Source: a virus
Reading direction: 5' to 3' (one strand)
Virus record (IMG/VR): IMGVR_UViG_3300027863_000019
Coordinates: 91,616 to 155,615 of that record
DNA length: 64,000 bases
A program made the position numbers and the translations under genes. The notes below the pieces were generated by a model. The model was not told where the DNA came from. It searched no databases and was given only the letters and a program-made list of their open reading frames with translations. Shown one piece after another: positions 6,895 through 52,100 of this stretch (the stretch's first letter is position 1; every line of letters begins with the position of its first letter).

Positions 6895-7347
6895 ATGGCG
6901 GCCCCAACTTATACGACCGATCTTAACATCCTTGACGATTGCGCTGATAGCACTGGTTGGGCTGAACCAACTGCTACTGGTTGGACTTCGCTCTTTGCTA
7001 TTACTAACGGTGAGACTGACTACTTTATTGAAGGTTCGGCATGCAATTCGGCTACTATTAGAGCTGGTGCTAGTGGAGTATCAATTCCAACTGATGGTGC
7101 TTTCCTTATCTGGATGTATTTTACCTCTCCGAACTTATTAGACACATATGCTAATGGTGGCATTCGAACTGTAATAGGTAGTGCTTTGAATGCCTTCTAT
7201 TGGGTTAAGCAGGGTGGTAAAGAAACTTATATATATGGCGGTTGGTAGTGTCTCGTGATGGCTGATCCTAGTGTAATTACAACTGAGACTGCTGTTGGAT
7301 CACCGACATCTACTCGAAGATATTTCGGGTTCAGTTTCAACTACTAG
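6895..7347 (+). pseudogene. Truncated virion structural protein with internal TAG
   Basis: Protein-like sequence continues in frame past TAG 7246-7248 (YGGW*CLVMADPSVITTETAVGSPTSTRRYFG) to TAG-TGA at 7345-7350. Confidence 0.5.
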
Positions 7348-7397
7348 TGATGTTACATTCACCGCAATTTTATCTGCGGATTCTTAAGGGGGAAAGT

Positions 7398-31430: not shown

Positions 31431-31637
31431 ATGTTTATTCCCAAACCCATAACAATGGCAATCATCACTTTCCTTTTTCCAATGGCAACATCTGTCGGTT
31501 ACTGGCTTAAAGTGACTACAGTTGGTGAAGTTGGAATCGCTTGGCAGATCTCAATTCTCGCGTTTCAGATTCAGAAATACTTTTGGAGCGAAACTGATTA
31601 TCGTGAAGTAAAGCACTTCTTATTTAGGGGGAAGTAA
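31431..31637 (+). pseudogene. Collapsed distal-tail (Dit)-like gene remnant at the canonical post-tape-measure position
   Basis: LAFQIQKYFWSETDYREVKHFLFRGK aligns with LAFQVEWYCHNAADWKTVRDFFLAARGK in the 1640-aa protein; only 68 aa long. Confidence 0.5.
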
Positions 31638-32440
31638 TGCAAGTCCATTTGTTCGGCTTCACTCTAAATCAAGCTTCGCTTTATGTCACGAATGATAACG
31701 TCCAACACGTTTATAGTGGCATCACATATAATGCAAGTGCTATAACGTGTAAGGAATATATTTATGACCTTAAAGAGGTTATGGGTGAAGCCAATATTAA
31801 CATTCCGTTTGCTCAAAGTGGCTTCCTCGCTGGTGCTGCTTCACGTTCAATTGAAGGACCTGTTAGAGTAGAAGTGTATGAATATGATACAATTAACGAT
31901 GATGCGACGCTAATTTTTCGTGGATTTGTAAACGTATTTAAAGTATCTAAAGCTGCTCTCGATATGCAATGTGTATCATTTGTTGAGCACGCACGAGATA
32001 ATTATGCGAGACTTCAATTGTCGCGCGTATGTCAGCATCGACTTTATAGTCCTCTCTGTGGAGTTAATGAAGCGAATTACAAAGTTGCTGGAACTATTTC
32101 TGGCTTCTCAGTTGATAGAGTTACTATTGAGATTAATGGAATTAATAATACGAGTGGATACTTTACTTATGGTTGGGTTGAATGGAAAGGAGTATATCGC
32201 CATATTGTAAATGATGTTTGGAATGGTACTTCACGTTTTGTTGATTTACTGCACTTCGCACCCACATCGTGGCAGAAAGATCAGCAAATAACTTTAGTTG
32301 CTGGGTGCGATAAACATTCAGATACTTGTAAGAGTAAGTTTGGGAACTTTGCGAATTTTATGGGATTCCCTTATGCACCATATGAATCCATTAGATATAC
32401 GGGATTAAGGCAACAATCTATTAGTAGGTCGAAAAAATAA
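31637..32440 (+). CDS. Tail tip hub protein, BR0599/DUF2163 (lambda gpL-like, Fe-S Cys motif)
   Basis: CQHRLYSPLCG ... GYFTYG ... AGCDK...TCKSKFGNFANFMGFPY. Confidence 0.9.
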   Translation: MQVHLFGFTLNQASLYVTNDNVQHVYSGITYNASAITCKEYIYDLKEVMGEANINIPFAQSGFLAGAASRSIEGPVRVEVYEYDTINDDATLIFRGFVNVFKVSKAALDMQCVSFVEHARDNYARLQLSRVCQHRLYSPLCGVNEANYKVAGTISGFSVDRVTIEINGINNTSGYFTYGWVEWKGVYRHIVNDVWNGTSRFVDLLHFAPTSWQKDQQITLVAGCDKHSDTCKSKFGNFANFMGFPYAPYESIRYTGLRQQSISRSKK

Positions 32441-32889: not shown

Positions 32890-33150
32890 ATGGGGCTCTT
32901 GAGTTTTGCAAATCCGGCGATGTGGTTAGTGAATATTGGAATTGCGGGATTGGGTTATCTTTTATATAAACCAAAACGTAATCAAAAAACTAAACCGCCT
33001 GACATGGAATTTAAAATGAGTGCTGTAAAGATTGGTACTCCCATTCCAGTCGTGTTAGGTTACGCTAAAGTAGGTGGCCTAATTATTGAATGGGGTGATT
33101 GGACTGTTGTGGCGCATAAGAAACGTATAAAAGGTGGTAAAGCCTTCTAA
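32890..33150 (+). CDS. Tail assembly protein (gpI-like N-terminal piece of the tip)
   Basis: Hydrophobic N-terminus, then GTPIPVVLGYAKVGG.IIEWGD. Confidence 0.75.
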   Translation: MGLLSFANPAMWLVNIGIAGLGYLLYKPKRNQKTKPPDMEFKMSAVKIGTPIPVVLGYAKVGGLIIEWGDWTVVAHKKRIKGGKAF

Positions 33151-35216
33151 TGGGAATTGGAAGTCAAATCAAAATTACAACTTATACGTATCGCATTCGA
33201 ACTGCGTATGCGATTACGTATGGTCCTATCGATGAATTCATTCGATTTGATTATAATAGTGACTACAAAACATACTATGCCGCACGTTCTGGATCCGTTC
33301 TCAATCTAAATACTTCCGAGAACGTTCTTTCAGGTCAAATCTGGTGGGGTAATGCTAGCCAAGGTACTAGTCCAAACCTTTCTGTTATGCATGAGGGGAT
33401 GAACTATAATAATATTTGCTATGGTGACTTCCATCTTGATCTAGGTTCCTCCCCCGCAATGCCGGCTGTTGCGTTTACTGTTACACGATACTATGCACCC
33501 GATCTTCCGGAAGGTTATAGTTGGGGAAGTATAACTGGATCATCGAGTGGCATGAATCCCGCCGTAATGCTTTATGATTTATTGACGAATCAGGTATATG
33601 GCTATGGTTTGAGTGCTGATGATATCTATATTGATTCATTTGTTGGAGCTTCTAATCAATTGGCGAACGAAGATTTAACTTGTAGTACTGTAATTGATAC
33701 CGCTGAAGTGTATGCCGTTGTTCGCGCGGTACTTGATTGGATCGATGGAGAGTTAATCTATCGTGAGGATGTTGGAAAGATTGCTCTTCGTTTAAGAAGA
33801 AAAGATTATACGCTTGATCAACTAGTTCAAGTGACAGCATCCGATATTCGAGCTCAAACTTTTGATTTACAGCGTCCAAGTTGGTATGCAACTAAGAACG
33901 TAGTTTACGTTAACTTTAATGATATAAATCGTGAATGCGATCAAAACTTAGTGTATGCTGAAGATTTAGCAAACTACAATATGACGGGCAACCAACGAGT
34001 TCAAGAGTTTAACTTTAATATTTTCACTGAAGGTTCGATGGCTCAAAAGGTTGCGACTCGTCAATTGCATAGACACTCATATCCTTGGGCTAAAGTTACC
34101 TTTGAGTGTTTCGCAGATAAAGGAGATGCACTAAAAGTTTTCGAACCCTTTTGGCTGCAACACGATTACTACGGCGTAGCGGCAGTATTTAGGATTACAG
34201 AGAAACGCCGTCAAGGACCGAACATTTGGAAAATTGAATGTGTCGAGGAATGCTTTTGTGCTAACTCCGCTTTTGCTGCAGGAGTTGATGAACCGTATCC
34301 AATTGTTCCTTATGTAACTCCTCAATCGATCGATTGGGATTATCGAATTCTTAATTCATATTATCGTGGATATCTTGTACTTGGATATTCTAACGACCAG
34401 ACAACCGATGTTATCTTAGATAGTTTCGTGGTAGAGTCGGATGTTGGACTTTCAACCTGTGATTACGCATGTGTTGGTAGGCTCGTTAATCCCGTTACTT
34501 CAGGTCATGATGCTACGTTATATGTTCAAAAGGATAAACACTTTCAAGATGACTTCTCGACCGTTGGTTACGTTCTAATTGATGACGAGATCATGAAGAT
34601 TGACTCTGCATCAGAGACTACCGATCAAGTAACGTATCTTTCAAGTAATGCTCATCGTGCATTGGAGGAAACAACTCAAGCGAATCATTCTGTCGGTGCT
34701 AAAGTATTTGCCCTAGATTGTCGAGCTTTCGTTGCATCGAATATGATTCCTGGGCATACGTATACGATGTCTATCACAGCACATTATATGTATCCTATTC
34801 TTTGGTTTGATTCTGATGATGCCGTAACGTATGAGATCGTTTGGGAACCTCTTACTGATATGCCAAAGGATCCCGTGATTCAATCACACAGTAGTGACGA
34901 TTATTTACAGGATATTACTTTTACTTGGAAGGCTCAAAATAGAGTCGCACCAATTCCAACACCATGTTCTGGACTTACTGCATATCCCCAAACCGACTCG
35001 GTCGATCAAATTTTAGGATATAAGATATGTCAGTGTAATCAAGGGGCGGGAACGACAAGTTTGTTAACGACTTACATTGATCCTGGTACAACTTCATACA
35101 CAAGTACGCGTGCCGAAAGAATTGCGGCAGGAATTTGTACGTCCTTTAGATTTGAAGTTTATTCTCGTGGAGTGAAAGGTTTTGATTCACTTCCCGCTAC
35201 GATCGATATAGGATAA
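33150..35216 (+). CDS. Central tail tip/baseplate hub protein (Phage-tail_3, gpJ-like)
   Basis: MNPAVMLYDLLTN..YGYG, IDSF..A...L..E, GKI.LRL.R.DY, N.V.V.F.D, A.KVA.R.L. Confidence 0.88.
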   Translation: MGIGSQIKITTYTYRIRTAYAITYGPIDEFIRFDYNSDYKTYYAARSGSVLNLNTSENVLSGQIWWGNASQGTSPNLSVMHEGMNYNNICYGDFHLDLGSSPAMPAVAFTVTRYYAPDLPEGYSWGSITGSSSGMNPAVMLYDLLTNQVYGYGLSADDIYIDSFVGASNQLANEDLTCSTVIDTAEVYAVVRAVLDWIDGELIYREDVGKIALRLRRKDYTLDQLVQVTASDIRAQTFDLQRPSWYATKNVVYVNFNDINRECDQNLVYAEDLANYNMTGNQRVQEFNFNIFTEGSMAQKVATRQLHRHSYPWAKVTFECFADKGDALKVFEPFWLQHDYYGVAAVFRITEKRRQGPNIWKIECVEECFCANSAFAAGVDEPYPIVPYVTPQSIDWDYRILNSYYRGYLVLGYSNDQTTDVILDSFVVESDVGLSTCDYACVGRLVNPVTSGHDATLYVQKDKHFQDDFSTVGYVLIDDEIMKIDSASETTDQVTYLSSNAHRALEETTQANHSVGAKVFALDCRAFVASNMIPGHTYTMSITAHYMYPILWFDSDDAVTYEIVWEPLTDMPKDPVIQSHSSDDYLQDITFTWKAQNRVAPIPTPCSGLTAYPQTDSVDQILGYKICQCNQGAGTTSLLTTYIDPGTTSYTSTRAERIAAGICTSFRFEVYSRGVKGFDSLPATIDIG

Positions 35217-35774: not shown

Positions 35775-36806
35775 ATGGCGAATATCTTTATGACTGGTTT
35801 TGAGTGGGGAACTTTGTATGAAGTTTCCTGGTGGGATGCATGGAACTTTTGTTCTATTGCAACTGATGTCGTTCGTTCAGGAAACTACTCGATACGTTTA
35901 TATGGAGCGTATGCTTCCTTCGCCATTTTTCTTCCTGGAGCTAAGAATGAAATTTTCGTCCAGTTTGCGTACTACACCGATGGGGCTTTTGGGAGCATTG
36001 GTTCAGTATTGTTAAACTGGTATGGTTTAAGTGGCGATAGACGTATTGGATATATTTCAACCTCTGAATCGGGGCAGATCCGTATCTATACCGTAACTCA
36101 TCCTGATGGAGTAAATGAAAGTGCGACGCTGAGGGCTCAAGGAAATGTTCGTTTAAAAACGAATCGTTGGTATGTTATTGAAATGCGAATCAAAGCCGAT
36201 CCGAACTTTGGCGCCTTAGAAGTTCGAGTTGATGGTGTTCCAGATTGTAGTTTTTGGGGACCAACTACAGAATATAATCCTGGAACAATTGATTCCGTCA
36301 GGTGGGGTCAGTTTAGTTGTTGGATTGATGATATTGTAATCAATGATACGACTGGAACTCATAATAATTCATGGCCGGGCTGTTTGAAAGTAGTTCTATT
36401 GAAACCTCAATCGGATGGTGCTTATGTCGAATGGACTAAGTCTGATGAAGGACATAATTATGATATGGTTAATGAAGTACCATTTGATCCCACACGATAT
36501 GTCTATACATCAGGTATTGGTCTGAGAGATCTATATAATATCGAAAATCTTCCTGCGGAGGCTGGTGAAGTATCAATAGTTCGAGGTGATGCCTGGTGTT
36601 TTAAGGATAGTGGTAGCTCCGCACAAAATCGAACGATTACATTTTCGGTAATGCCAGGGGTAACAATTACTGACTCAGCCGCACAGGATATCACTCTCTC
36701 ATATCAGTTAGTTCATTGTCCCTTTGATTATAATCCGGATACCGGCGAAATTTGGTCTAAAGAGGAAGTTAATTCTATGCAGGCGGGGATCAAATCAAGC
36801 TCGTAA
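35775..36806 (+). CDS. Tail adhesion jelly-roll protein, paralog 1 of 5
   Basis: F.TGFE.G ... WYVIE ... DDIVINDTTG..NNSWPG ... L.P..DG ... VNE.P ... DLY ... NP.TG..W...EVN. Confidence 0.65.
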   Translation: MANIFMTGFEWGTLYEVSWWDAWNFCSIATDVVRSGNYSIRLYGAYASFAIFLPGAKNEIFVQFAYYTDGAFGSIGSVLLNWYGLSGDRRIGYISTSESGQIRIYTVTHPDGVNESATLRAQGNVRLKTNRWYVIEMRIKADPNFGALEVRVDGVPDCSFWGPTTEYNPGTIDSVRWGQFSCWIDDIVINDTTGTHNNSWPGCLKVVLLKPQSDGAYVEWTKSDEGHNYDMVNEVPFDPTRYVYTSGIGLRDLYNIENLPAEAGEVSIVRGDAWCFKDSGSSAQNRTITFSVMPGVTITDSAAQDITLSYQLVHCPFDYNPDTGEIWSKEEVNSMQAGIKSSS

Positions 36807-36818
36807 TAGGTACTCCCC

Positions 36819-38534
36819 TTGATAAATAGATTTTATGATGACTACACTTGCAAAGCAGTATATCGATTTGAAACCGACGCAATCAATGTCGATTCTCAAC
36901 ATACCAATCATCTCGTAAATTCCGGCGTTACAAACAATCTTACTGACTATCAAGAAGGTTATGCCTCCGCTCAATTTAATGGTAGCGCGAGGTTTTCGCT
37001 TGCGGATACGAGCCTCTCCGCTGGATTCCCTTTAAAGTGGATTGAAAATCCTGTTGATCGTGAAGAGAACCCATCTATCATTTCGGCAGCATTCTGGATC
37101 AAGTTTACCGATGTAATTGGAATGCAGGCGATTGTTGCAAAACACGATCCAACGAATGATGCTCGTTGTTGGATGATCTATGTCGATTCTGGAGTTCTTA
37201 AAGTAGCTTGGGGTATCAATGGAGGTATTGATCAAAAGACTATTTCATCACAAACTACTTTAGTTGCAAATAGGTGGTACCATATTGGGGTATCATGTTC
37301 GAGCGTCGAATTGTTATGCCAGTTTTATATTTGGGATTCAGTTGTTGGCAATATCATTTGCAATAAGTTGTATCAAGCCTTAAACGATCCCATGACAACC
37401 TGTACCGCCGACTTTACTATTGGTTCAGACCATGCAGGAGATTATAAACTTTCGGCAACTCTTGATGAGCTTGTTATCTTCAATACGTATAAGAAACCGA
37501 ATGAATACGATCAAATCCGTAAACAAGAGTATGTCGGTCCTCTAAAGAATAGTTTAATTGATGACCCTTCATGTAAAGCTTGGTTTGATTTTGAACCTGA
37601 TCAGATGTTATTTGATTGGCAGAATGGTCACGTTCTAACCGATGTTAATACTATCTCTCCAAGTCAAACCTTTTTCAAGTGCAATAAGCAGGCTGTTTAT
37701 TTTAATAAGATAAATAAAGAGTATGCTTATATTTCGGATTCATCCCTTCAATCTGGATTCCCATTAAAGCTTAATGATTCTGATTGTGCATTTACATTTG
37801 CATTCTGGGTGCGTTTAGATGATGATATAGGTGGAACTATTGTTAGTAAGTCTGCAAATACTAATGGGCAGAAGAGTCTTGTACTTTATTTTTCGGGAAC
37901 TACCTTCCAAGTTCGATGGGGATATGGAACCGACTTTCAAACGTTTAGTACAATTCACTTTACGACTCACCGTTGGTATCATGTTGCCGTTGCAGGGCAT
38001 GGAACTCAAAAGATTCTCACTATTCGAATTTGGGATGACGTTCAACAGTCAGTAGTGTATTTTAATCTACTTCACCCAACGAATAGTTTAATTGCTGGAG
38101 CTGGACCTTTTTCGATTGGATATCATTCAGGCGTGACTGAATACTTCGCGGGATGGTTAGATGAACTTTTAATTTTTAATCAACCTAAGTCTTTAGAAGA
38201 AACTGATTTGATGCGTAAAGGATTATACCATCGGCCTTTACTTTACGCATGTGTTGAATCGGTTTGTGCTCAGCCAACTTATTGGCTACCTGATGGTCTC
38301 AAAGTTGTTTCTGTAGGAGTTCAACCAACTTTTATACCAGTCGCAATGGTAAAGACCTGTGCTTGTGGTATGATGGTTCAGTACTACGCTACGAATCGAT
38401 TCACGGCAAACAATATGCATTTAGATCCTGATTGTGTCGCTGCGTACAGTTTTGAATCTGGTTCAATGTTTTTAAGTGACTCAATTGGTGGGAATGATTT
38501 AACCGACCATGGAACGATTGATCCAGTACAATAA
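36819..38534 (+). CDS. LamG/concanavalin A-like tandem-domain tail protein (2 full modules + start of a third)
   Basis: C.A.Y.FE...DS...N.L ... GFPLK ... FW ... RWYH ... F.IG ... LDEL.IFN twice; ends in a partial module (…SDSIGGNDLTDHGTIDPVQ*). Confidence 0.8.
   Translation: MINRFYDDYTCKAVYRFETDAINVDSQHTNHLVNSGVTNNLTDYQEGYASAQFNGSARFSLADTSLSAGFPLKWIENPVDREENPSIISAAFWIKFTDVIGMQAIVAKHDPTNDARCWMIYVDSGVLKVAWGINGGIDQKTISSQTTLVANRWYHIGVSCSSVELLCQFYIWDSVVGNIICNKLYQALNDPMTTCTADFTIGSDHAGDYKLSATLDELVIFNTYKKPNEYDQIRKQEYVGPLKNSLIDDPSCKAWFDFEPDQMLFDWQNGHVLTDVNTISPSQTFFKCNKQAVYFNKINKEYAYISDSSLQSGFPLKLNDSDCAFTFAFWVRLDDDIGGTIVSKSANTNGQKSLVLYFSGTTFQVRWGYGTDFQTFSTIHFTTHRWYHVAVAGHGTQKILTIRIWDDVQQSVVYFNLLHPTNSLIAGAGPFSIGYHSGVTEYFAGWLDELLIFNQPKSLEETDLMRKGLYHRPLLYACVESVCAQPTYWLPDGLKVVSVGVQPTFIPVAMVKTCACGMMVQYYATNRFTANNMHLDPDCVAAYSFESGSMFLSDSIGGNDLTDHGTIDPVQ
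38520..38532 (+). repeat. Left junction repeat GATCCAGTACAAT
   Basis: Matches 41468-41481 (GATCCAAGTACAAT) with a single 1-nt indel; both GAT CCA are in frame. Confidence 0.7.
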
Positions 38535-38584
38535 ATTAATAGAAGGTGTTTCGTATTTTCAAGGAGTGAGTGGCTATATAATCT

Positions 38585-41500
38585 ATGAGCACAACATTCA
38601 AAAAGTATTGGTTTCGCGGCAAGCCACTCAAGCAACTCCAACCTAATTCTAAGTTCTTTAAGTATTGGCTCAACGGCTCGCCCTTTGATTGTTTTTATCA
38701 GTTGGGTGGGCCGCCCCAAATTGTAACTCTTTCTGAAACTCTACATCTAACATTAACGCAATATGCTCCAACGATTAACTTTGGATATTGCGTTACGCCT
38801 TCCTGCTTACACCTAACGTTAACTCAATATGCCCCCGCTTGCTCTGCTGGAACTGTTGATGGAGCAAATGTCGAGGCGTTAGATGTTCGAGTCATTTATT
38901 CAGAACCTGAGCAACTCAACGTTGAAGCTGTAGATGTTCGAGTCATTTATTCAGAACCTGAGCAACTCAACGTTGAAGCTGTAGATGTTCGAGTCATATA
39001 CGCTGTAGAGAATGTTAAAGTTTCGCAAGTTATTGGTCAGGTTGAATATAATGTAGCGTGTACTTGTTATCCTGAGACCCTACACCTTACATTTATTTTA
39101 CATGGCTTGCCAACTGTTGTTGCAATATCAACGACTTTAAGTTTAACTTTTACATCTCACGAGCCGACCTTCTTTGCTTCTGCTCACGTAGCTGTTGAGA
39201 CTCTTCACTTAACGTTTGCTCAATATGCTCCCGATGTACCATCTACGATGGTACTCACGATGTCAACGCTTCATCTGTCGCTTGTTCAGCACCCTGTCTC
39301 GGTTCAATGCGAATGTAAAATAACGCCAGAATTACGGTCACTTAATTTAACCCTGTATACTCCATTAGTTTTAATTGGGGCCAAGCTCTCTGAGACGCTA
39401 CACGCGGTTTTAAGCCTATATTCTCCGACTATTAAAACCGGATGGACAGTAGCAATATTGTTCGCACAACATCTCGCTGTCAATCAATATGCACCAACGA
39501 TTAAGTTTGGTTGCAGATATATCATTTCAGCTGTCCAAAGTTTAACGCTTACACTTCATGAGCCGACCATTAAATCGGGAGTTTTTCTTCCTGAAACTCT
39601 ACGTCTAACATTAACACAATATGCTCCAACGATTAACTTTGGATATCGCGTAACGACTATAGTCCAGCATTTAACGTTAGCACATCATGCTCCAACGATT
39701 AAGTTTGGAAGTAATCAACTTGTCGGACTTCAATCGTTAACGCTTTCGTTGCATGATCCAATAATTAGTACTGGAGTTTATCTCCAAGAAACTCTACACC
39801 TAACACTAGCTCAATCTAATCCAACAATTAAATATGATTATGTTGTTGCCTTATCGACTGCTCAACACTTAACGCTAGCTCTATATGCTCCTACATTAAG
39901 AGCCTCACAATCTATTTCTGTTGGACTACAATCATTAACGTTAACGTTACATGATCCAACAATTAACATTGGTGTTCGGATCTATGAAACTGTTCATTTA
40001 ACGTTAGCTCAATATGCTCCAACAGCTAAGTTTGGATACGTTGTTGCAATTTCGGTTGCATTTCACTTAACGTTAAACAAGTATAGTCCATCTATTAAAA
40101 CAGATCAACACTTAGCGTTAAGTACAACTCAATCGTTAACATTAACGTTACATGAACCTTATATTCAAATTGGTGCTTGTGTTCATGAAACTCTTGGCTT
40201 AACCTTCGCGTTACATAAACCAACTATTGATTTTAGTTATATCGTAGTTCCTTCTACTTTACATTTAGTACTTACTCAATACGCTCCAACTATTAAGTTT
40301 GGTTTTACTATTCCTGTTGGATTACAATCATTAACGTTATCATTACATAATCCAGTTATCAATACTGGTGTTACTTTATATGATACGTTACATTTGAGTC
40401 TCGCTCAATACTCACCAACACTTAAGTATGGATATACTGTAGCACTCTCGACGCTTCATTTAACGTTAAACAAGTATGCTCCGACAATTAAGTTTGGATA
40501 TATTGTTCCAATTGACTTACAATCATTAACGTTAACGTTACATGATCCAACAATTAACATTGGTGTTCGGATCTATGAAACTGTTCATTTAAGTTTAAGT
40601 CAACGCGCTCCATCAATTTTCTATAGTTATGCAGTTGTACCTTCAACTGTCCACTTAGTGAGTGCACTGCACGCTCCCTTCATTCAAACAGATCAACACT
40701 TATCATTGAGTCAAGTCTTACATGCTACGCTTTCACTAAGTGATCCTGACGTTATTAGTGGTGTACGTATTTATGAAACACTGCATCTAGTTGGTACTCT
40801 TTACGCTCCGACGATTAACTTTGATTATGAAGTTGATCTTGCGACGGTTCAACATTTAAAGTTAGCATTATATAGCCCGACAATTTGCTTTGACTATGCC
40901 GTACCGCTCGATCTACAATCACTAACGTTTACAGCTCCAGATGTTCAAGTATGGACTGGTGTACGTTTGTTTGAGACTGTTCATTTAAGTTTAAGTCAAA
41001 GTGCTCCATCAATTTTCTATGGTTATACGGTTAAACCTTCAACAGTTCATTTACATTTCGCTTTAAAAGGTTTAACAATTCGTACTACTTGGACTGTTAG
41101 ATATCTCGCGCCTTGCCAACACTTATTACTTTCAGCACCTGATATTAATGTAACAACTGGTGCGACGATTCATGAAACATCAAACCTTTACTTGACTCAA
41201 TACAGCCCCGAAATTATAACGTTTGCGTTGATGGTTCCTAATACTCAATCATTAGTTGCAACGCTTCACGCACCACTCATTAAGATTTCACATGCGACTC
41301 AAGTTGAGACATTGTCATTAACTTTCACTAGCTACGACGCAGTGATCTTTATTGGTTCTAATATTAGAGAGTGCGCACACTTAACGTTCCATCAATATAC
41401 TGAAATTGATTTATTCTATGATTGGACTCAAGAGGTTGAAACCTTACATCTAACCTTTAGACTACACGATCCAAGTACAATTGGAATTCTACCGTTTTAT

Positions 41501-43507
41501 GAATACGATTTAGATCCATTACATAAGGAACGTGAATGGGCTTCAGAGTATACTCCAGGTGAAGCTACCTATGGAAGTAGACCTGGGTCTGCTTTAAGTT
41601 CGAACTTTCCATTGCGGAGTGATGACACTGATAAACAATTAACTGTTTGTTTCTGGCTACGTCTCAGAGATTCAGGTGGTTATCAACTTATATTTGCTAA
41701 AATGCAAGACGATGCAACCAATACTCCAGTAATTGGTCTTCAACGTCTGCACGGTCAATTAACTTTATTGTGGGCTTATAAAGAAAACGATGCTCAAGGA
41801 TGGCCAAGTCTTGACTTCAAGTTTTCACTCGTAAATGAGAGATGGTATCATATTGGTCTCGCAGTTGACGGTAAGAATAAAACTGTCTACATGCAAGTCT
41901 GGGATGACTACTTAAAAACAAAGCAAGCGGAAATCTGGAATGGTATCTATCAACCAACCATTAATAGCTCACTAGTTTGCGGCGATGGTTCATTCCAAAT
42001 TGGATACATGCATGGACTCTATGGTAAAGGTGAAATGTTCCTTGATGGTTATCTCGATGAGTTTCTTGTATTTAATAAACTTAAATCGCCATTTGAAATG
42101 GATCAAATTCGCAAAGGTACCTTCCGTGGACAAGAGGGCGGCCAGACTGTAGGCGACTTTGGATTGACAACAGCTTATGATCCGCAAGGAAAGATAACTG
42201 TCTATGATTATGCCACGATGGCAGCTTACAGTCCAAGTGGTAAAATTACCGTTGCTGACTTTGGAGTTTCAATTGGTTACAAAGTTCCTATTGAACTTCC
42301 CCCCGGGTTATTTCCAGTGATTTCTGGATTCCCATCTCAAAACACTGGTTCGGGGTCATACGTGTTTTGTAACTTAAAGTATAAATTTAAGAGTGATATC
42401 TCTTCGTTCGATTGGCAAACCAATAGAGAGTCTCGTTTTTCTGAGTATACTTATCCGATTAGGGAACTTGAAACTGAGATTGGTGTTGCTGATGAGTCTG
42501 CATTCCTGAGAGTTTGGGAGACCTTACAGTCAGGCGTGACGATTTACTCGGTACCTATTTGGGGACTGCGCACTGAACTAACTCGTAATGCACATGCTGG
42601 ATATACTGAATTCGTTGTGGATGACGTGTCAAATCTTTACGTTGGTGAGAAGGTTTTATTAGTGAGAGCTAATGATGCTGATCTTTATGATCTCTGTGAC
42701 ATAACGAGTATCGCTGGAAATACTGTTCATGTTGAATTGCCATTGACTCGACACTATCATAAATATCAAATGATTACAAATGATGTCTGGTATGATGAGC
42801 GAAGTGCTTATGTTGTACCATGCTTAACCGGATTCATTGATACTGAGGATCTTGAACTACATGGCACTGGAAAGTCAACCTTCTTTGTTAAGGCTAAAGT
42901 TAATGGTGGAGCCTGGACTCATATGGGAAACCCAGAGATGCCAGCCAAAGTTCCTGTTCCTGCTGAGGCTAGTTATATAAGTCCAAAGATGGAGAGAGTT
43001 GCTTTAGGAACTGAGAATGGTATTCTTTCTTTAATGTCATCTCTTTCAACCGGAAAGCTCGCCTTCCAGGTTGAATGGTACTGCCATAACGCTGCTGATT
43101 GGAAAACCGTTCGAGACTTCTTCTTGGCTGCTCGCGGAAAGTATTTAGCCTTCTACTTTCCAACGTATTGCTTTGAACTTAGAGCAATCCAAAGTAGCTC
43201 CATCGGTCAAACAGTAATTAGATTGACTAAAGGGTTTAGTGCTCTATGGCAACGATTCCCAAGGCTTTATGTCTTTCCAATTCAAGGCGGAGATCCTTTT
43301 CCAATTCAAATCACCGGTTGTCACATTGAAGGTGCTCCAGATTTTGTTGAAAGTTTTACTTGTGAACCTTTGACTGGTAACCTCACAGCTGGAGACAAAA
43401 TTAGTTTATATCCGTTAGTTAGATTTATTGAGGATGAATTGGTGTTTGAGTTCCTTTACTATAATGAATGCAAAATAAAAGCTTCGTTCATCGAAATTTT
43501 AGGATAA
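38585..43507 (+). CDS. Chimeric tail fibre protein: ~39 beta-strand repeats + C-terminal part of a LamG module + Dit-like domain
   Basis: 21-23-aa (E/S)T/Q-(L/H/S)-L-T-L-xxx-x-P repeats to aa ~963, then LSSNFPLRSDD..CFW..RWYH..LDEFLVFN, then FFLAARGKY.AF.FPT ... VRFIEDEL (DUF2460/Dit-like). Confidence 0.75.
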   Translation: MSTTFKKYWFRGKPLKQLQPNSKFFKYWLNGSPFDCFYQLGGPPQIVTLSETLHLTLTQYAPTINFGYCVTPSCLHLTLTQYAPACSAGTVDGANVEALDVRVIYSEPEQLNVEAVDVRVIYSEPEQLNVEAVDVRVIYAVENVKVSQVIGQVEYNVACTCYPETLHLTFILHGLPTVVAISTTLSLTFTSHEPTFFASAHVAVETLHLTFAQYAPDVPSTMVLTMSTLHLSLVQHPVSVQCECKITPELRSLNLTLYTPLVLIGAKLSETLHAVLSLYSPTIKTGWTVAILFAQHLAVNQYAPTIKFGCRYIISAVQSLTLTLHEPTIKSGVFLPETLRLTLTQYAPTINFGYRVTTIVQHLTLAHHAPTIKFGSNQLVGLQSLTLSLHDPIISTGVYLQETLHLTLAQSNPTIKYDYVVALSTAQHLTLALYAPTLRASQSISVGLQSLTLTLHDPTINIGVRIYETVHLTLAQYAPTAKFGYVVAISVAFHLTLNKYSPSIKTDQHLALSTTQSLTLTLHEPYIQIGACVHETLGLTFALHKPTIDFSYIVVPSTLHLVLTQYAPTIKFGFTIPVGLQSLTLSLHNPVINTGVTLYDTLHLSLAQYSPTLKYGYTVALSTLHLTLNKYAPTIKFGYIVPIDLQSLTLTLHDPTINIGVRIYETVHLSLSQRAPSIFYSYAVVPSTVHLVSALHAPFIQTDQHLSLSQVLHATLSLSDPDVISGVRIYETLHLVGTLYAPTINFDYEVDLATVQHLKLALYSPTICFDYAVPLDLQSLTFTAPDVQVWTGVRLFETVHLSLSQSAPSIFYGYTVKPSTVHLHFALKGLTIRTTWTVRYLAPCQHLLLSAPDINVTTGATIHETSNLYLTQYSPEIITFALMVPNTQSLVATLHAPLIKISHATQVETLSLTFTSYDAVIFIGSNIRECAHLTFHQYTEIDLFYDWTQEVETLHLTFRLHDPSTIGILPFYEYDLDPLHKEREWASEYTPGEATYGSRPGSALSSNFPLRSDDTDKQLTVCFWLRLRDSGGYQLIFAKMQDDATNTPVIGLQRLHGQLTLLWAYKENDAQGWPSLDFKFSLVNERWYHIGLAVDGKNKTVYMQVWDDYLKTKQAEIWNGIYQPTINSSLVCGDGSFQIGYMHGLYGKGEMFLDGYLDEFLVFNKLKSPFEMDQIRKGTFRGQEGGQTVGDFGLTTAYDPQGKITVYDYATMAAYSPSGKITVADFGVSIGYKVPIELPPGLFPVISGFPSQNTGSGSYVFCNLKYKFKSDISSFDWQTNRESRFSEYTYPIRELETEIGVADESAFLRVWETLQSGVTIYSVPIWGLRTELTRNAHAGYTEFVVDDVSNLYVGEKVLLVRANDADLYDLCDITSIAGNTVHVELPLTRHYHKYQMITNDVWYDERSAYVVPCLTGFIDTEDLELHGTGKSTFFVKAKVNGGAWTHMGNPEMPAKVPVPAEASYISPKMERVALGTENGILSLMSSLSTGKLAFQVEWYCHNAADWKTVRDFFLAARGKYLAFYFPTYCFELRAIQSSSIGQTVIRLTKGFSALWQRFPRLYVFPIQGGDPFPIQITGCHIEGAPDFVESFTCEPLTGNLTAGDKISLYPLVRFIEDELVFEFLYYNECKIKASFIEILG
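38880..38997 (+). repeat. Perfect 51-nt tandem repeat (2.3 copies) encoding DVRVIYSEPEQLNVEAV
   Basis: TAGATGTTCGAGTCATTTATTCAGAACCTGAGCAACTCAACGTTGAAGCTG at 38880 and 38931, partial at 38982. Confidence 0.95.
41468..41481 (+). repeat. Right junction repeat GATCCAAGTACAAT
   Basis: Sits exactly where the fibre repeats end and the LamG C-terminal part begins; a second similar site (ACGATTtaGATCCA) is at 41505-41518. Confidence 0.7.
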
Positions 43508-43685: not shown

Positions 43686-44843
43686 ATGGCAATTCTTTTA
43701 TGGGGAGTTCCAACTGGTGATGACTTCACTTGGGATATGACCTACAAGTTTAAAACCGAGGAATGCACTCTTGATGCGACGGGAGCAACGACTGCGTTTG
43801 CGACCTACTCACATCCAACTCGAGAGATTAAGTTTGCACTTGGTGCTACTCGCGATGAAGCTTATGATAGATTATCCGCCTTTCTTCGTGCAGGTGCTGA
43901 CTTTGTAACTGTTCCTTTATGGTTTCTTAGAACTTCTCTCATGGACGCAGCCTACGCTGGAAGTCAAGAATTTTTAGTTAGCGATACCTCAGAACTATTT
44001 CCCGGAGATCAAGCTCTATTAATGAAGGCTAATCAACCCGCTACAGCAGAACTCATCACGATTTCTGCAATAGCAGGTTCAACCGTTTACACCACAACCC
44101 CTATCACAAACTACTATAGTCCAACCTTCTTTGATTTGATGTCTGTTTACAATACATCCTTCGCATATTTTATTCCAGTTCTCACTGGAATCTTGGACTA
44201 TGAGGGTTTGGACTTTATCGATGGCTTACCCGGCGTTGCTTTGAAAGCAAAGGTTGATGGAGGCGCTTGGAGTAACTATTCAATCCCAGCCTTACCAACT
44301 TTCAATGATGTAGCGATGGATGCAAAGTATAATTCTCCAAAGATGACTCGAGACTTACTTGGAGTAGATAATGGTGTCCTTGTTCTTTATCCTTATGGGA
44401 CTTCATCTAAACTCACCTTCGAGTGCACTTGGAACTTTAAAGACTCAAATTGGAAGACACTAAGAGATTTGTTTTTTGCAGCACATGGCAAAGCGGAAGT
44501 TTTTAATATTTCAACGTTCATGTACGAAGTAAGAACTACTCGTGGAGCGGACCAAGGATCTACAACGATTTTTCTTAATGCGAGTTATCAATACTTATAT
44601 AAACGTTTTCCTTTCTTAAAAGTCTATTCTCGAAGAACTGGTGATCAGTTTATAGTGCATGTAACAGATTATGTAATGGGGGAACAATTCACCTGTGATG
44701 CTTTACCTCATGAAGTTTATGATGGCGACTTAGTGTGCTTTTATCCATCCGTAAGATTCAATACAGATGAACTGACTTTTAGCTTTAAAGGTGTTAATAT
44801 GTGTACTGTGAAGGCAACGTTCGTTGAGGAGTGGCAAGATTAA
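43686..44843 (+). CDS. Distal-tail (Dit/DUF2460)-like protein, paralog of the C-terminus of 38585-43507
   Basis: Full-length similarity: YKFK, Y..P.RE, VP.W.LRT, KAKV.GGAW, SPKM.R..LG..NG.L, WKT.RD.F.AA.GK, VRF..DEL.F. Confidence 0.7.
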   Translation: MAILLWGVPTGDDFTWDMTYKFKTEECTLDATGATTAFATYSHPTREIKFALGATRDEAYDRLSAFLRAGADFVTVPLWFLRTSLMDAAYAGSQEFLVSDTSELFPGDQALLMKANQPATAELITISAIAGSTVYTTTPITNYYSPTFFDLMSVYNTSFAYFIPVLTGILDYEGLDFIDGLPGVALKAKVDGGAWSNYSIPALPTFNDVAMDAKYNSPKMTRDLLGVDNGVLVLYPYGTSSKLTFECTWNFKDSNWKTLRDLFFAAHGKAEVFNISTFMYEVRTTRGADQGSTTIFLNASYQYLYKRFPFLKVYSRRTGDQFIVHVTDYVMGEQFTCDALPHEVYDGDLVCFYPSVRFNTDELTFSFKGVNMCTVKATFVEEWQD

Positions 44844-45907
44844 TGGCAACAGTATATATGAATGGTTTTGAGTGGAGATCGTTCTACGAAAATATTTTAT
44901 CGTGGGATGGACTCAACACTGGAATTGTTAGCGCTTCTACAACGACTGGACGTGGACATACTACACAGCCTCGCTCGGGAAACTACTGCTTATGCATTTG
45001 GGGCTCTGATAGTTTTGTTAGGTGGCAAACTACTCCCCTGAATGAATTTTATATTCAAATCGCTGTGAAAATTAATAGTAGCTATGCGGAAAGTAACCTA
45101 TTAAGATGGACTTCACCTACTCCAAACATTTTAGGATGCCTCACATTTAATCCAACGAATCAAACAATGTCAGTTTGGACTGGAGATATGTCAACGCGTT
45201 TAGGAACTTCATCAACACAATTGTTATACGGGAAGTGGTATTTAATTGAAATTTATGTGAAGCTTGCTACATCAGGAGGAACTATTGAGTTACGAATTGA
45301 TGGTCAAACTCAATTTACCTTTACAGGAGCAACAACTCCGAACGATACTACAGCCGCCTTATTCTATCTTGTTGGAAACGTTAAGTCAAGTGGTTCCATC
45401 TATGCTGATGGAACCCATTTCTGGGCTGATGATGTTGTTATTAATGATACAACGGGTGACTTTAATAATTCGTGGCCAAACGGGTCGCAGATTGTTTTAT
45501 TAATGCCGAACGGTAAGGGTGACATTACTGAGTGGAGTAGAATTACTGGTCTAGATAATTACTATGACGTTGCACAACTTCCAGTTCTAGATCCTTCGAT
45601 GTATAACTATACCGAACATACAGCGATGAGAGATCTGTATCTATTACAAGACCTTCCTGATGATGCTTACGCCGTAGGTGCAGTTAGAGTAGATGCTTGG
45701 GCATTAAAGAACAGTGGTTCAGATATTATGCTCAAACTCGCTTTACTTACCGCAGGACTCACATTTTACTCATCGGATATGGAACTCGGAATTTCATATA
45801 ACTTATCCCAGTGGCTACATCAGCTTAATCCTGGGACGTGTGCTGCGTGGACTGTTGATGATGTTAAGTACTTGCAGGGAGGAATTAATTCGAACGTTCC
45901 TGAATAA
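44843..45907 (+). CDS. Tail adhesion jelly-roll protein, paralog 2 of 5
   Basis: YMNGFEW ... WYLIE ... DDVVINDTTGDFNNSWP ... RDLY; ATG 44843 overlaps the upstream stop. Confidence 0.65.
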   Translation: MATVYMNGFEWRSFYENILSWDGLNTGIVSASTTTGRGHTTQPRSGNYCLCIWGSDSFVRWQTTPLNEFYIQIAVKINSSYAESNLLRWTSPTPNILGCLTFNPTNQTMSVWTGDMSTRLGTSSTQLLYGKWYLIEIYVKLATSGGTIELRIDGQTQFTFTGATTPNDTTAALFYLVGNVKSSGSIYADGTHFWADDVVINDTTGDFNNSWPNGSQIVLLMPNGKGDITEWSRITGLDNYYDVAQLPVLDPSMYNYTEHTAMRDLYLLQDLPDDAYAVGAVRVDAWALKNSGSDIMLKLALLTAGLTFYSSDMELGISYNLSQWLHQLNPGTCAAWTVDDVKYLQGGINSNVPE

Positions 45908-46396: not shown

Positions 46397-47389
46397 GTGA
46401 TTCCATTGGCAATCTTATTCGCTACGGGAGGTGAACTTGGTATACCCGAGTTCACCTCTTATGACATCAAAGGTATCTATTGTTCTACCAATTATAAACG
46501 AACCGGTTCGTATAGTATTTGCTGTTATTCTGGGAGCGCGTCTCAAGTTATCCCCCCAACAACCGAACTTTATATTTCGGGGTGGTTCTATTTCACCTCG
46601 ATTGCAAATACAACTAATGACCGGTTGATCGAATTAAGAGGTAGTGGAACTGCTAATGTTGTGTTAGAGACGGGTTATTTTGGCTACCCCCTTTTGCTAT
46701 ATTCTCCTAATACTTATTCAACCCTTGCAAGGGGATCAACTGCGATAATGTTGAATACTTGGTACTTAATCGAGTTACACATTAGAATTGGAGTTAACGG
46801 TTTAGTTGAATGCCGTTTAAATGGCTTACCCGAATTTTCATACTCTGGTAATACTACAACTACCTCATTTATTGATGGAGTTTACATGGATTCATCGTAT
46901 GTGATCTATTACTTAGATGATTTTATTATTAACGATACAACTGGACCTATAAATAATTCTTGGATGGGTGGATGTAAGATAGTCACTTTAAGACCAATAG
47001 GTGCTGGAAGTTCAACGCAATGGATTCCATCTGCAGGTTCAAACTGGGATTGCGTTGATGAAACGCCGCCATCAGCTACAGATTATATTTCTTCGACAAC
47101 AGCTGGTGCATTAGATTTATATGATATTGCACCACTGCCTGGTGGGGTTAGCTCGTCAGCAACTATTAGATCTGTTACTGTTACTGCATATGCTCAAAGA
47201 GCTGGACTTACGACTTCGAACTTTTATGATGTGATTCGGATTAATGGTTCAAATTACTTTTCACCGCAATTTGGGGCGGGAGCTGTATATTCGCCATATT
47301 CCTATATTATGGATTTAAATCCAGCAACTGGAGTTACATGGTTGTTTTCAGAAGTAAATACGATTGAAGCAGGAGTGAAACTTTTCTAA
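46397..47389 (+). CDS. Tail adhesion jelly-roll protein, paralog 3 of 5
   Basis: LFATGGELG ... WYLIE ... DDFIINDTTGPINNSW ... GAGSSTQW ... CVDETPP ... DLY. Confidence 0.65.
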   Translation: MIPLAILFATGGELGIPEFTSYDIKGIYCSTNYKRTGSYSICCYSGSASQVIPPTTELYISGWFYFTSIANTTNDRLIELRGSGTANVVLETGYFGYPLLLYSPNTYSTLARGSTAIMLNTWYLIELHIRIGVNGLVECRLNGLPEFSYSGNTTTTSFIDGVYMDSSYVIYYLDDFIINDTTGPINNSWMGGCKIVTLRPIGAGSSTQWIPSAGSNWDCVDETPPSATDYISSTTAGALDLYDIAPLPGGVSSSATIRSVTVTAYAQRAGLTTSNFYDVIRINGSNYFSPQFGAGAVYSPYSYIMDLNPATGVTWLFSEVNTIEAGVKLF

Positions 47390-49197
47390 TGTCAATGGTC
47401 TTCGCAAGCGGTTGGGAAACTAACTTGTCTAGAGATGGAGGTAACTGGACGAGCGGGAATCTCTCTGGAAGTTCTGGAGTAACGAATGCTATTCGTCGTG
47501 GTCCTAACTATTCAATGAACTTTGCAACCGCTGGAGATAATATTAGAAAAGTGTTGAACACTTCCGCCGATGAGATCTTTCTCCAGTCATGTTTTTATTG
47601 GTCGGGGACTCCAAGCTCTAGTGCGGGTAGATTACTTAGAATGGCAAGAAATAGTAATGTTTATTTCTCTATAGTCTTAGATGCAAATGGATGTTTGAAT
47701 ATTTATACGGGTGATAGTGCAACTCTAGTCGCTACTGGAACTACAACCTTATTGATTAATAGATGGTATGTCATTGAAGTTCATTTTAAATATCATGCAA
47801 CTGCCGGAACAATTGAAGTAAGACTCGATGGTAGTTCTGAATGTTCGTGGAGTGGCGATACTACTTTGGGAATCTCAACTGGATTCACAACAACTGCTAA
47901 AGCAAGAATGAAGTTTACACCCGGAGCTTTAACTGTTGATTCTTTGGGAAATTTACCAAACTGGTCTCAAACCGGAAGCCCAGTCGCCTCAACAACATTG
48001 CCAGTACTCGAAGGTGGAACTTCCTTATATTGTGATAACACTTCCCGGTTAACAATTACTGACGCTAACTTGCCAGCCGGGTTTCCTTTAAAGTCAGGAG
48101 ATATAACGCAACTTGGAACTTGGATGTATTGGTTCCGACTTTCAAATTACTTAACCGCCGGATTTTTCCAGGAAACGATTTCTAAATTTGATAAGACTAA
48201 TAGTAAATTAACAATTGAACATGTTTTACATGATGCGGCAACTACATTTAGAGTTGGTTGGGGTTATGGTAGTACAGATTCTCAGAACCAAGAAACCTGG
48301 GATACACTTAACATGGTTCCAGGTAATTGGTATCATATTGCTTTTACTTATAATGGTCCCGGTAAGACCGCATACTTAAGAATTTTTGATTTGTTTAATG
48401 GAACAACATATACTTATAGTAAGACTTGGTCAAATGCTTTACGGACAAATGCTGGGAGTCCATGGGTTATTGGAAATAATGCGACTATAACTAACAATGG
48501 TGGATATTCGTGGATCGCTGATTATCTCATTTTTAATTCACAGCTTTCCGAATTTACGATTGATTGTTTCCGTTCTATTTATCACGACTCAACTTTTTCC
48601 GGCTCCGACCCATATTCTGTTATGCAGTCTAACTGGTGCTTGGAAATCTATTCAGCTGGAACTGGAATGTATGTTGATGATGTAATCGTTAATGATACGA
48701 ATGGTACAGTAAATAATTCGTGGGTTGATCAAGCTCATATAACATTAATGAAAACTATTGGTCCAGGTTCATATGGGGACTTCACTCCCAGCGATTCAAC
48801 ACCAACGAATGGTTGGAATTTCTTAAATACTCTTCCCTTATCGTCAGTGAATTGCGTGTTTTCGAATACGCCCGGCACATGTCATTCATGTTTAATGACC
48901 AACGTTCCTTTTCAAACCGTTGAAGTTGATGCAATTATTGGTTCAGCTCGAATTTGGAAAACACCTAGTGCTGCCGCCACGACGGTGAATTTGTTAATCG
49001 TTGCTGGAAGTACTGTATTCCAATCTCCCAATGCTGCTATTCCAAGTCGAATGTTAAGTTATTCAGGAAGCTATTCGACGAACTCTGCAGTTATTACACC
49101 CTACTGTACAAATTTTTTACTAGAACCACCCTCATCTAATCCATTCTCAAGAAGTGAGTTAGATGGAATTTTAGAAATAGGATTAAAGATTTCATAA
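47389..49197 (+). CDS. Tail adhesion jelly-roll protein, paralog 4 of 5, with an inserted LamG module
   Basis: VFASGWE ... WYVIE ... [LPAGFPLKSGD..WYH..FN] ... DDVIVNDTNG..NNSW. Confidence 0.65.
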   Translation: MSMVFASGWETNLSRDGGNWTSGNLSGSSGVTNAIRRGPNYSMNFATAGDNIRKVLNTSADEIFLQSCFYWSGTPSSSAGRLLRMARNSNVYFSIVLDANGCLNIYTGDSATLVATGTTTLLINRWYVIEVHFKYHATAGTIEVRLDGSSECSWSGDTTLGISTGFTTTAKARMKFTPGALTVDSLGNLPNWSQTGSPVASTTLPVLEGGTSLYCDNTSRLTITDANLPAGFPLKSGDITQLGTWMYWFRLSNYLTAGFFQETISKFDKTNSKLTIEHVLHDAATTFRVGWGYGSTDSQNQETWDTLNMVPGNWYHIAFTYNGPGKTAYLRIFDLFNGTTYTYSKTWSNALRTNAGSPWVIGNNATITNNGGYSWIADYLIFNSQLSEFTIDCFRSIYHDSTFSGSDPYSVMQSNWCLEIYSAGTGMYVDDVIVNDTNGTVNNSWVDQAHITLMKTIGPGSYGDFTPSDSTPTNGWNFLNTLPLSSVNCVFSNTPGTCHSCLMTNVPFQTVEVDAIIGSARIWKTPSAAATTVNLLIVAGSTVFQSPNAAIPSRMLSYSGSYSTNSAVITPYCTNFLLEPPSSNPFSRSELDGILEIGLKIS

Positions 49198-52100
49198 ATG
49201 GCCAACAATTTTGCAAATGATGCTAACTGTGTAGCTCTATATAGATTTGAAAATGGAGCTTTAACGACTGACTCAGGTCCAGTTGGTACTAATACTTTAA
49301 ATCCAAACAATAGTCCTTCAGCTGATATTGTTAATTTTAAAGAAGGTTCCGGATCTACTAGTCTTGTCGCTGCTTCCACACAATTCTATAACCTTACTGA
49401 TAGCAATCAAAGCTCTGGCTTTCCTTTAAAGAGCGGTACCACAAATAAGTTAATGAGTATTTGTGGTTGGTTCAAGCTTGGAACGACATCCAATAATAGA
49501 GGTTTATTCGGTAAAGTTAATCAGTCCGGAAGTGTTGGTTGCGGTTTATACGTTTACAATAGTAGTTTGTATATTAGTTATAACGGCGGTTGGCAGAACA
49601 CCGGCCTTTCAGTTTCCGCGAATATTTGGTATCATGTTGGGATGATTTACAATGGAACGAATGGTCAGGCAACAGTTCGGTTATTTAAATCAGATGATAG
49701 TACTTTACAATCAGCCAGTTTTGGACTTGGAGCTTTAAATGTTGGAGCTGTTGATTTTGTCGTTGGTACTTTCAGCGACAACACTTCTTGGATGGCTGAT
49801 AGCAATTTTGATGAAGTGGTTGTTTTCAATAGACTTCTCGTGCCAGGTGAGATTGATTCAATTAGAACTGGAATCTTTCCAACTATTACACCTCAATCTC
49901 ACTACACAAGTAATAACTTTACCGGCGATCCAAATTGCATTTCAGTGTATCGATTTGAGAATGGAGCTTTAACAACCGATTCATTTGGAACTAACACCTT
50001 AACTGCGGTTAATGCTCCGACATGTGATACAAATGATAACATTGAAGGTTCAGGAAGTACTGCGTTAGCTTATGCAAGCAAACAGTTTTATAAGATTACT
50101 GATGCAAACCTTTCGAGTAGCTTTCCCTTAAAGTCTGGCGACTCAGTAATGCTAGGAACGTTTGCGTGTTGGTTTAAATTAAGTTCAACGGGGGGCAACG
50201 TTCCCGCAATCATTGGTAAAGGTGCTTATGGTGGAGCTGGATTAAATCTTTATCATAATGCTGGATCACTTCAAGTGAGCTGGAATGGTACCGCATGTAC
50301 TGCATTAACAAATTTAAGCACTGGAATTTGGTATCACGCAGCGATAGTATTTAATGGTAAGTCACGTACTTGTTACGTTCGACTTTATAATTCATCTACA
50401 GGATCTGCGACGACATATATTGTTAGTGGTATACCTGCTTCTGATTTAATCTTGACTGCTGAGTTTCGTGTTGGAGCTTGGTCTGGAACTGATACTGATA
50501 GAACCTTTGATGGTAAGATTGATGAGGTAGTTGTATTTAATCGTGGATTATCTGTAAATGAAATAGATGCGATTCGTCAAGGTACTTACAGCTATGTATC
50601 TCCAATCATGGCAACCTCTAATGATTTCTCAAGAGATAAGACTTGTGTAAATCAATATTTATTTGAACCCGGAGCATTGACAACAGATACGAAAGGGTTT
50701 GTGACTCTTAATGCATCAACTAGCGCGCCGACTTCTTATACAACCGAGTATAAGCAAGGAAGTGGTTGTGTTATGATGCAGAGCGGCTATAATCAATACT
50801 TCTATGTTACGGATGCAAATTTACCGACTGGGGCTTTTTGCAAGTCAGCCGACGCCGACGTAAATTTATTTACTATTTGTTGTTGGTTAAAGCGTTTTGA
50901 TTATGGGCAAAGAACTATTCTCGGCAAGTGGGTTAGCGGTCAGTATGTTTTTATACTTTACACTGATCCAACATCACATAATATTAAAATGGGAATGGGA
51001 ACTGCATCATATAGTCAGTGGACTTGGGATACTGGAATTCAATTATTACCTAATGAATGGTATCATTTAGCGCTAAGTTTTGACTGGGGTGCTAGTAAGA
51101 ACACGATGATTCGTCTTTATCAAGCTTCTACTAACAAAGTGTATGGAAACTATTATCAAGGTTATCTATCTTCTAGTTCGTTTTGGATTTCTGGAACTGC
51201 CGATTTTAGAATTGGCAGTAATCAAGATTCGACGACCAATAGTTGGAATGGATTGATGGATGAGTTCTTAATCTTCTATCGATTCTTAAATATTGAAGAG
51301 ATTGATGCAATCCGCTCCGGAACCTATACTGGACCAATGGTGCCACAACTTTTAACCGCCTCACAAATTTTTCCTGGGCTTTCTTTTGCTGCAGCTGTTA
51401 ATAATCCGACACTAAACTTTTCTCATGGTGGTGATGCTGTTTGGTCCATTCATAATAATGAAACTCACGATCTTGGTTTTAGCGTTAAAAGTGGTACGAT
51501 TGGTTTAAACCAAGAGTCGTGGTTTTCAACTACTGTTAAAGGTCCTGGTAAATTAATTTTTTGGTGGGCCGTTGACTCTACTGCTAACCACCACTATTTA
51601 CAATTTCAAATTGATGGGGTAGCTCAAGATAGTATTAGTGGTCCAAATAATCCAGGAGTGTGGGTAAAGAAGTCTTATTCGATCGCGGCTGGAACTCATA
51701 CTTTAAAATGGAGATACTATACAGACGGCACCGCAGCCTCAGGTCGCAATGCTGGTTATGTTGATGAAATTTCATTTGGCCCTGGAAATGATTTCACTAA
51801 TGATTCTAATTGCATTTCTGTTTATAAAGGTGATTCTATTCATCCCGGTTTTGACTCCAAGGGAACTAATCATTTAAGAAATGGTCATGGTGTTAGATTT
51901 CAAGGATTCACAAATCAAATAAGAAAGAGTGGCTACCTTTATCCTTATTATTCAAGAGGTGCATCACAATATTTAACACTTGATGATTCAAGTTTAAGTG
52001 CATCATTTCCATTAAAAAGCACTGACACGTCAAAGGTAGGAACTTTCTGTTTCTGGTTTTTGTTGAATAACTCTTCTAGCTACACATATTTTGATTTGCT

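Follow-up and report, generated by a model that had tools for sequence, protein, structure and literature searches.

In the baseplate of the Lactococcus siphophage Tuc2009, a C-terminal beta-hairpin of BppU (about 25 residues) completes one beta-sheet in a beta-sandwich domain of the carbohydrate-binding accessory protein BppA in the crystal structure, and the resulting BppU-BppA composite is a full Ig-like (titin-like) domain (PMC4742702). This is the closest solved case to the locus described here, which comprises two adjacent phage tail genes whose products are referred to as P0001 (upstream) and P0002 (downstream). Both systems have a C-terminal piece of two strands, a strand-deficient sandwich in the partner protein, and an attached lectin module. 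In Tuc2009 the scaffold protein BppU acts as donor and the composite is a small sandwich of the Ig-like type, whereas in the joint proposed here the lectin-bearing P0001 would be the donor and the composite would be a LamG jelly roll of about 225 residues. There is no sequence relationship between the two pairs, the joint described here is modelled only, and the halves carried by P0001 and P0002 still read as parts of one sequence module, unlike those of the Tuc2009 joint.

The general principle is donor-strand complementation, as in chaperone-usher pili (Fim, Pap), where an incomplete beta-sandwich without its edge strand is completed by a strand of another polypeptide, and the non-covalent joint so formed is very stable. 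In pilins a single C-terminal strand is missing, a chaperone is used and the subunits polymerise, whereas P0001 and P0002 would share two N-terminal LamG strands contributed by a single specific partner, and nothing points to a chaperone or to chaining.

Two further systems were considered for comparison. Phage tail and receptor-binding proteins with several LamG modules (PF13385) are built from the same module family, with the same N-terminal motif in each module; one example is a 1882-aa protein encoded at 49198-54846 of the sequence analysed, which has 5 complete LamG modules and, after them, a long C-terminal region (no family match for this region in the family scans made). In such proteins the modules are contiguous in one chain, and only the P0001/P0002 module is divided between two genes. 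In Campbell-type cassettes and shufflons, short direct near-repeats flank a segment whose removal restores an open reading frame, and such a configuration is also present here; the locus differs from them in that the repeats are not conserved, no empty site is seen in relatives, and the segment is vertically inherited and integral to the gene family. No description of a split LamG joint was found in the literature searched.

Gene context and the two pieces of one LamG module

The window (the whole stretch of viral DNA that was analysed, 64,000 nucleotides) corresponds to the structural region of a siphovirus-like phage. It contains a tape measure gene (17394-31430, 4678 aa), a hub-like gene (31637-32440, PF09931/PF09356) and a J-like gene (33150-35216, PF13550) followed by a run of tail-tip genes. 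The J-like protein has matches in cultured siphophages at only about 24%, and neither a DNA nor a protein match to the P0001 and P0002 genes was obtained among GenBank phages. The tape measures of relatives are 5067 and 5207 aa long and carry PF10145 and a Peptidase_M23 domain; the tape measure lengths imply tails of roughly 0.7 micrometre. The phages that share the arrangement described below form an uncultured, siphovirus-like clade whose tape measures have about 4700-5200 aa. Interspersed with the LamG genes lie four paralogues of PHROG 2448, a family of unassigned function, at 35775-36806, 44831-45907, 46397-47389 and 47389-49197 (in the N-terminal part of the latter product), and this interleaving suggests repeated cassettes in the tail-tip region.

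P0001 is encoded at 36819..38534 (+ strand, as are all features of the two genes given below) from a TTG start, and is a protein of 571 aa made of 2 complete LamG modules, a 65-aa linker and a head-only LamG piece. P0002 is encoded at 38585..43507 and is a protein of 1640 aa made of a conserved leader, a repeat region, a headless LamG module and a C-terminal domain. The spacer between the genes (38535..38584, 50 nt) contains an AAGGAG motif 18 nt 5' of the ATG. Its length is also 50 nt in the relative contig L001, is 17 nt in L002, and is replaced in L003 by an overlap of stop and start. Fusion of P0001 and P0002 by read-through or frameshift was ruled out, given that the frames differ, that the spacer has stops and that the spacer length is variable among relatives.

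Using Pfam, two Laminin_G_3 domains (PF13385; 75.7 bits for a cut-off of 27.6) were detected in P0001 and one in P0002 (31.9 bits, same cut-off). The Pfam Laminin_G_3 model misses the first strands of these modules, and a dedicated HMM of 225 positions was therefore built from 27 complete modules, taken from P0001, its relatives and the five-module protein at 49198-54846. Positions 1-225 of this HMM were matched twice by P0001, and the end of the same protein matched positions 3-33 (E 2.7e-9), while P0002 matched positions 49-225 (E 5e-45). Positions 34-48 were matched by neither half. The head-only piece (38424..38531, P0001 aa 536-571) corresponds to the first two strands of a third module and ends at the stop codon; the headless module (41549..42115, P0002 aa 989-1177) follows the repeats. 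An earlier note on this DNA had read the locus in this way, with P0001 stopping a few residues into a third LamG module and the remainder resuming in P0002, and the HMM matches bear this out. No single polypeptide contains the whole domain, since it begins at position 49 of 225 in P0002 and positions 3-33 terminate P0001.

Whether the halves form one domain was also examined by joining them in silico, and each join gave one domain match covering positions 3-225 (166 and 173 bits). When the window was searched in six frames, 8 complete LamG modules were found, and besides these a single head-only piece (38424-38519) and a single headless module (41549-42115). When P0002 residues 940-1190 were modelled on their own with AF2, a confident jelly-roll core was obtained from about residue 1006 (core pLDDT 80-93), with residues 940-1005 disordered, and the core matched pentraxin, laminin-G and neurexin LNS structures (Foldseek probability 1.00, TM by target 0.5-0.59). 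The complementary HMM matches, the single-domain joins, the module count in the window and the AF2 core together confirm that one LamG module is divided between P0001 and P0002, and that the two halves are complementary.

Relatives, near-repeats and the repeat region

Ten relatives of P0001 were found (38-62% identity, 572-584 aa), and all ten have their C-terminus at the same tail residues. For nine of them a separate HMM match was obtained at positions 2-33 or 2-34, and the tail of the tenth (P0022) is recognisable by eye. For P0002, a search with the 681 C-terminal residues gave 9 relatives of 1080-1305 aa. These were considered as candidates for an unsplit gene, given that their length fits, and were rejected because all nine have the P0002 leader and repeats like those of P0002. 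Searching the C-terminal domain against 1.8 billion representatives brought in 5 distant members (31-45% identity), each with the leader, the repeats, a headless LamG that opens with an invariant or near-invariant motif, and the C-terminal domain; a search of IMG/VR with the C-terminal part of P0002 gave no relative. The resulting 14 relatives of P0002 (31-59% identity) have the same leader, repeats and headless LamG, and their LamG match starts in every case at HMM positions 40-51. All nine close relatives keep the DPLHKE motif at the opening of the headless module unchanged, and several positions of P0002 residues 963-988 are invariant among relatives. The leader itself (38585-38710) shows an internal duplication of a short Lys/Trp/Gly-Pro motif that is kept in relatives at 31% identity, and may be a true anchoring or assembly element of P0002.

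An unsplit gene joining three LamG modules to the C-terminal domain, which the earlier note had proposed to look for, was found in none of the 10 relatives of P0001 and 14 relatives of P0002. All of them share the split arrangement and the gene ends, an outcome that the same note had named as evidence against a switch, and that fits the other explanation it offered, namely a fixed evolutionary event. Contigs from different samples (at least five, besides one identical contig) carry the two genes in the same order, and in the most distant relative contig, L003, a P0001-type tail is directly followed by a gene with the same leader and repeats. The identical contig, L005, comes from an independent assembly and is 100% identical over 18.9 kb including both junctions, with one 51-bp repeat unit as the only difference. 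These contigs bear on the possibility of an assembly artefact, in which a LamG gene would have received a repeat gene through a chimeric join. Repeats are abundant in the region and the 51-bp unit does differ between two assemblies, but the same order and junctions recur in L005 and in the five or more contigs from other samples, and an artefact can be given a practically negligible probability.

The 36-residue tail of P0001 (aa 536-571) is the best-conserved part of the protein, with 75-89% identity in the nine close relatives, as compared with 55-62% for the two LamG modules (aa 1-470) and 34-52% for the linker before the tail in the same nine. In the distant P0022 these values are 47% for the tail, 38% for the LamG modules and 29% for the linker. 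In the comparison with L001, 20 codons of the tail differ, 13 of them by synonymous and 7 by non-synonymous changes. The high identity of the tail and the mostly synonymous codon change indicate purifying selection on the tail peptide. It is very unlikely, given these values, that an old rearrangement left the tail as a neutral relic without a function of its own: gene fissions do leave remnants, which is all that speaks for this explanation, whereas conservation of the tail exceeds that of the functional LamG modules of P0001, codon changes in the tail are mostly synonymous, and its exact C-terminus is kept in all relatives, no tail-less or frameshifted relative having been seen.

The breakpoints of the split carry near-repeats that the earlier note had taken for att-like sites, and its coordinates and frames were correct. 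The left copy (38520..38532) encodes Asp-Pro-Val-Gln-stop, its GATCCA corresponding to P0001 codons 568-569 (Asp-Pro) in frame. The right copy (41468..41481) falls on the His-Asp-Pro motif of the final repeat unit, and this copy is not conserved among relatives; a second Asp-Pro site (41505..41518) is placed directly before the DPLHKE motif; the GATCCA at 41468 and at 41513 are P0002 codons 962-963 and 977-978 respectively, both in frame. The left and right copies match at 13 of 14 nt with one indel, 2948 bp apart. A crossover between them would give hypothetical products of 1246 aa and 965 aa, and this arithmetic of the earlier note holds.

From these near-repeats the earlier note had derived a Campbell-type integration of a circular module and, possibly, a reversible lectin/fibre switch. 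According to this reading, a circular 2.95-kb module integrated at the Asp-Pro repeats and is still excisable, so that the locus would alternate between a gene joining three LamG modules to the C-terminal domain and a repeat-fibre gene. In its favour, the 13/14-nt match occurs nowhere else in the window on either strand and was produced by only 3 of 20000 shuffles of the 120-nt junction zone (a test made post hoc), and a crossover at the match would be in frame and would restore a full LamG. Against it, the match is absent at the equivalent repeat-to-LamG boundary of L001 and L002 (the two relatives with readable DNA), and its right copy falls within a normal repeat unit, the final one among 21 copies of the repeat core. 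His-Asp/Glu-Pro is a standard motif there, and the match overlaps a motif found in most repeat units. A scan of metagenome contigs for the left flank plus core gave just one contig, unrelated and of high GC, and favours neither side. The "occupied" state is moreover present in all relatives, down to 31-38% identity, and no "empty" form was seen; L005 shows no difference at either junction; and a scan of twelve gene products, from genes located between 31637 and 49197 (the 86-aa open reading frame at 32890-33150 lying outside the scan), matched no recombinase family. As an account of the origin of the arrangement, the switch is already largely refuted, and we regard it as extremely improbable. 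By comparison of the sequences, the arrangement is not supported as a switch and appears to be neither that nor a recent insertion, the split being apparently old and fixed in all relatives sampled. A likeness between the end of the P0001 tail (Asp-Pro-Val-Gln) and the start of the headless module (Asp-Pro-Leu-His) is found in the window and in L001, and its few residues do not allow a duplication relic to be distinguished from coincidence.

The repeat region (38714..41475) is formed by about 40 units of a 21-23-aa (typically 22-residue) repeat, predicted to be all-beta, with super-periods of 66 and 132 aa. It extends over about 965 aa before the headless LamG in P0002, and the whole stretch before the LamG core, of 989 residues in P0002, is of 333-697 residues in relatives. 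Recent duplicates are visible at the DNA level, including a perfect 51-bp tandem repeat (38880..38997, 17 aa per unit, 2.3 copies) of which the otherwise identical L005 has one copy fewer (positions 7296-7362). This difference reflects either real copy-number variation in the fibre gene or a collapse in assembly. Since the length varies among relatives, internal DNA repeats are present and the 51-bp unit differs between assemblies, the repeat region is clearly growing in place by tandem duplication, an ongoing process. An AF2 model of 372 aa of the region was all-beta at low confidence (pLDDT 49). The GC skew is negative over the repeat region (window positions 38000-42000), which is most simply explained as an effect of the Thr/Leu/His/Pro-rich repeats; a recent foreign origin of the segment, considered from this skew, was rejected because the G+C content is like that of the flanks and the segment is inherited with the family.

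Predicted completion of the domain in trans

As in strand complementation, the acceptor (P0002) is without its edge strands and the missing strands are located at the terminus of the other protein (P0001). Because a conserved head piece adjoins a conserved headless domain, completion in trans is the simplest function that can be proposed for the arrangement. A complex of P0002 residues 950-1190 and P0001 residues 515-571 was modelled, and gave an ipSAE of 0.78 (0.74, 0.84 and 0.78 in the individual runs), as compared with 0.00 for the best of 3 controls. The calibrated ipSAE mark is reached by 58 of 80 solved complexes and by 2 of 110 mismatched pairs. The runs agreed in at least 66% of contacts, with a partner pLDDT of at least 59; the model concerns one pair and was obtained from shallow alignments (10-11 rows). 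In this model, P0001 residues 538-545 are placed antiparallel to P0002 residues 1159-1165, which form the last LamG strand, and P0001 residues 557-565 contact P0002 residues 994-1009. The site beside the last LamG strand is the place of the first two strands in a complete LamG. The score of 0.78 may represent the memory that the predictor has of the LamG fold, as the halves of a split domain tend to pass such a test.

The reading that we consider probable is that of an old, fixed split of one LamG (concanavalin-like) domain that is kept as a plug-and-socket joint, in which the tail of P0001 completes the LamG of P0002 in trans. The first two LamG strands would be provided by the C-terminal tail of P0001, which bears two LamG modules (the proposed donor, or plug), and the remaining strands by P0002, between its beta-repeat region and its C-terminal domain (the proposed acceptor, or socket). 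The tail would insert into the strand-deficient LamG, and one loop of the rebuilt domain would be shorter than usual or otherwise altered, as HMM positions 34-48 are found in neither half. Such a joint would mount the two lectin-type modules of P0001 at the junction of the repeat fibre and the C-terminal domain of P0002, that is, at the base of the fibre.

The split could also be real and fixed while the LamG of P0002 closes on itself (residues 963-1005) or tolerates an open edge, the tail of P0001 then binding another baseplate component or folding back on P0001. This is consistent with the several invariant positions of P0002 residues 963-988, which might supply substitute strands in cis, and with the HMM positions that neither half matches, and the complex score could come from fold memory. 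We nevertheless consider it unlikely, as the window has exactly one head-only piece and one headless module, which are in adjacent genes, the pairing of head and headless pieces is found in every relative, P0002 residues 940-1005 are without a confident fold when modelled alone, and all controls of the complex model scored 0.00.

For the split LamG joint completed in trans, the best reading is that of a predicted variant of a known assembly principle, namely strand complementation on a jelly-roll fold. The chances are about even that a LamG lectin domain is used here as a two-chain joint, acting as a connector and possibly also as a binding module.

C-terminal domain, origin and meaning of the arrangement

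The C-terminal domain of P0002 (42360..43504, about 380 aa) is possibly Dit-like. A stand-alone paralogue of 385 aa is encoded downstream (43686..44843, + strand; 37% identity, E 2e-78), and among relatives both a stand-alone form (about 385 aa, common) and a fused form occur. The earlier note had called this domain a Dit. The evidence obtained consists of a match to DUF2460 (the RcGTA g12 type of Dit) that is below threshold (E 0.2, 11.5 bits for a cut-off of 30.4), of feature-only leads to the DTP domains of T5 pb9 (0.90-0.92) and of an assignment to phrog_1082 ("tail assembly protein"), and a profile search of the PDB by sequence gave no match; the Dit label is kept as a lead that rests on weak evidence. 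No Dit-sized gene is found at 31431-31636, between the tape measure gene and the hub-like gene, where relatives have only a 68-aa open reading frame, and the usual distal tail protein may have been displaced or replaced.

Concerning the origin of the arrangement, a continuous third LamG module was evidently interrupted before the sampled family diverged, and the two genes could be the result of a fission of a once-continuous gene in which three LamG modules were followed by the C-terminal domain. The repeats could have been acquired by insertion of a ready-made repeat gene, or the gene could have been cut first and a new N-terminus then grown by tandem duplication.

If the joint is real, it would represent an intra-domain gene fission that has persisted over a very long period, with homologues diverged to about 31-38% identity, and in which the domain that was cut became the glue between two virion proteins. 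The presence of a head-only piece beside a headless domain would then provide a rule for predicting the binding partners of tail proteins in uncultured phages, and the two proteins would offer a natural plug-and-socket, a possible mount for receptor-binding modules.
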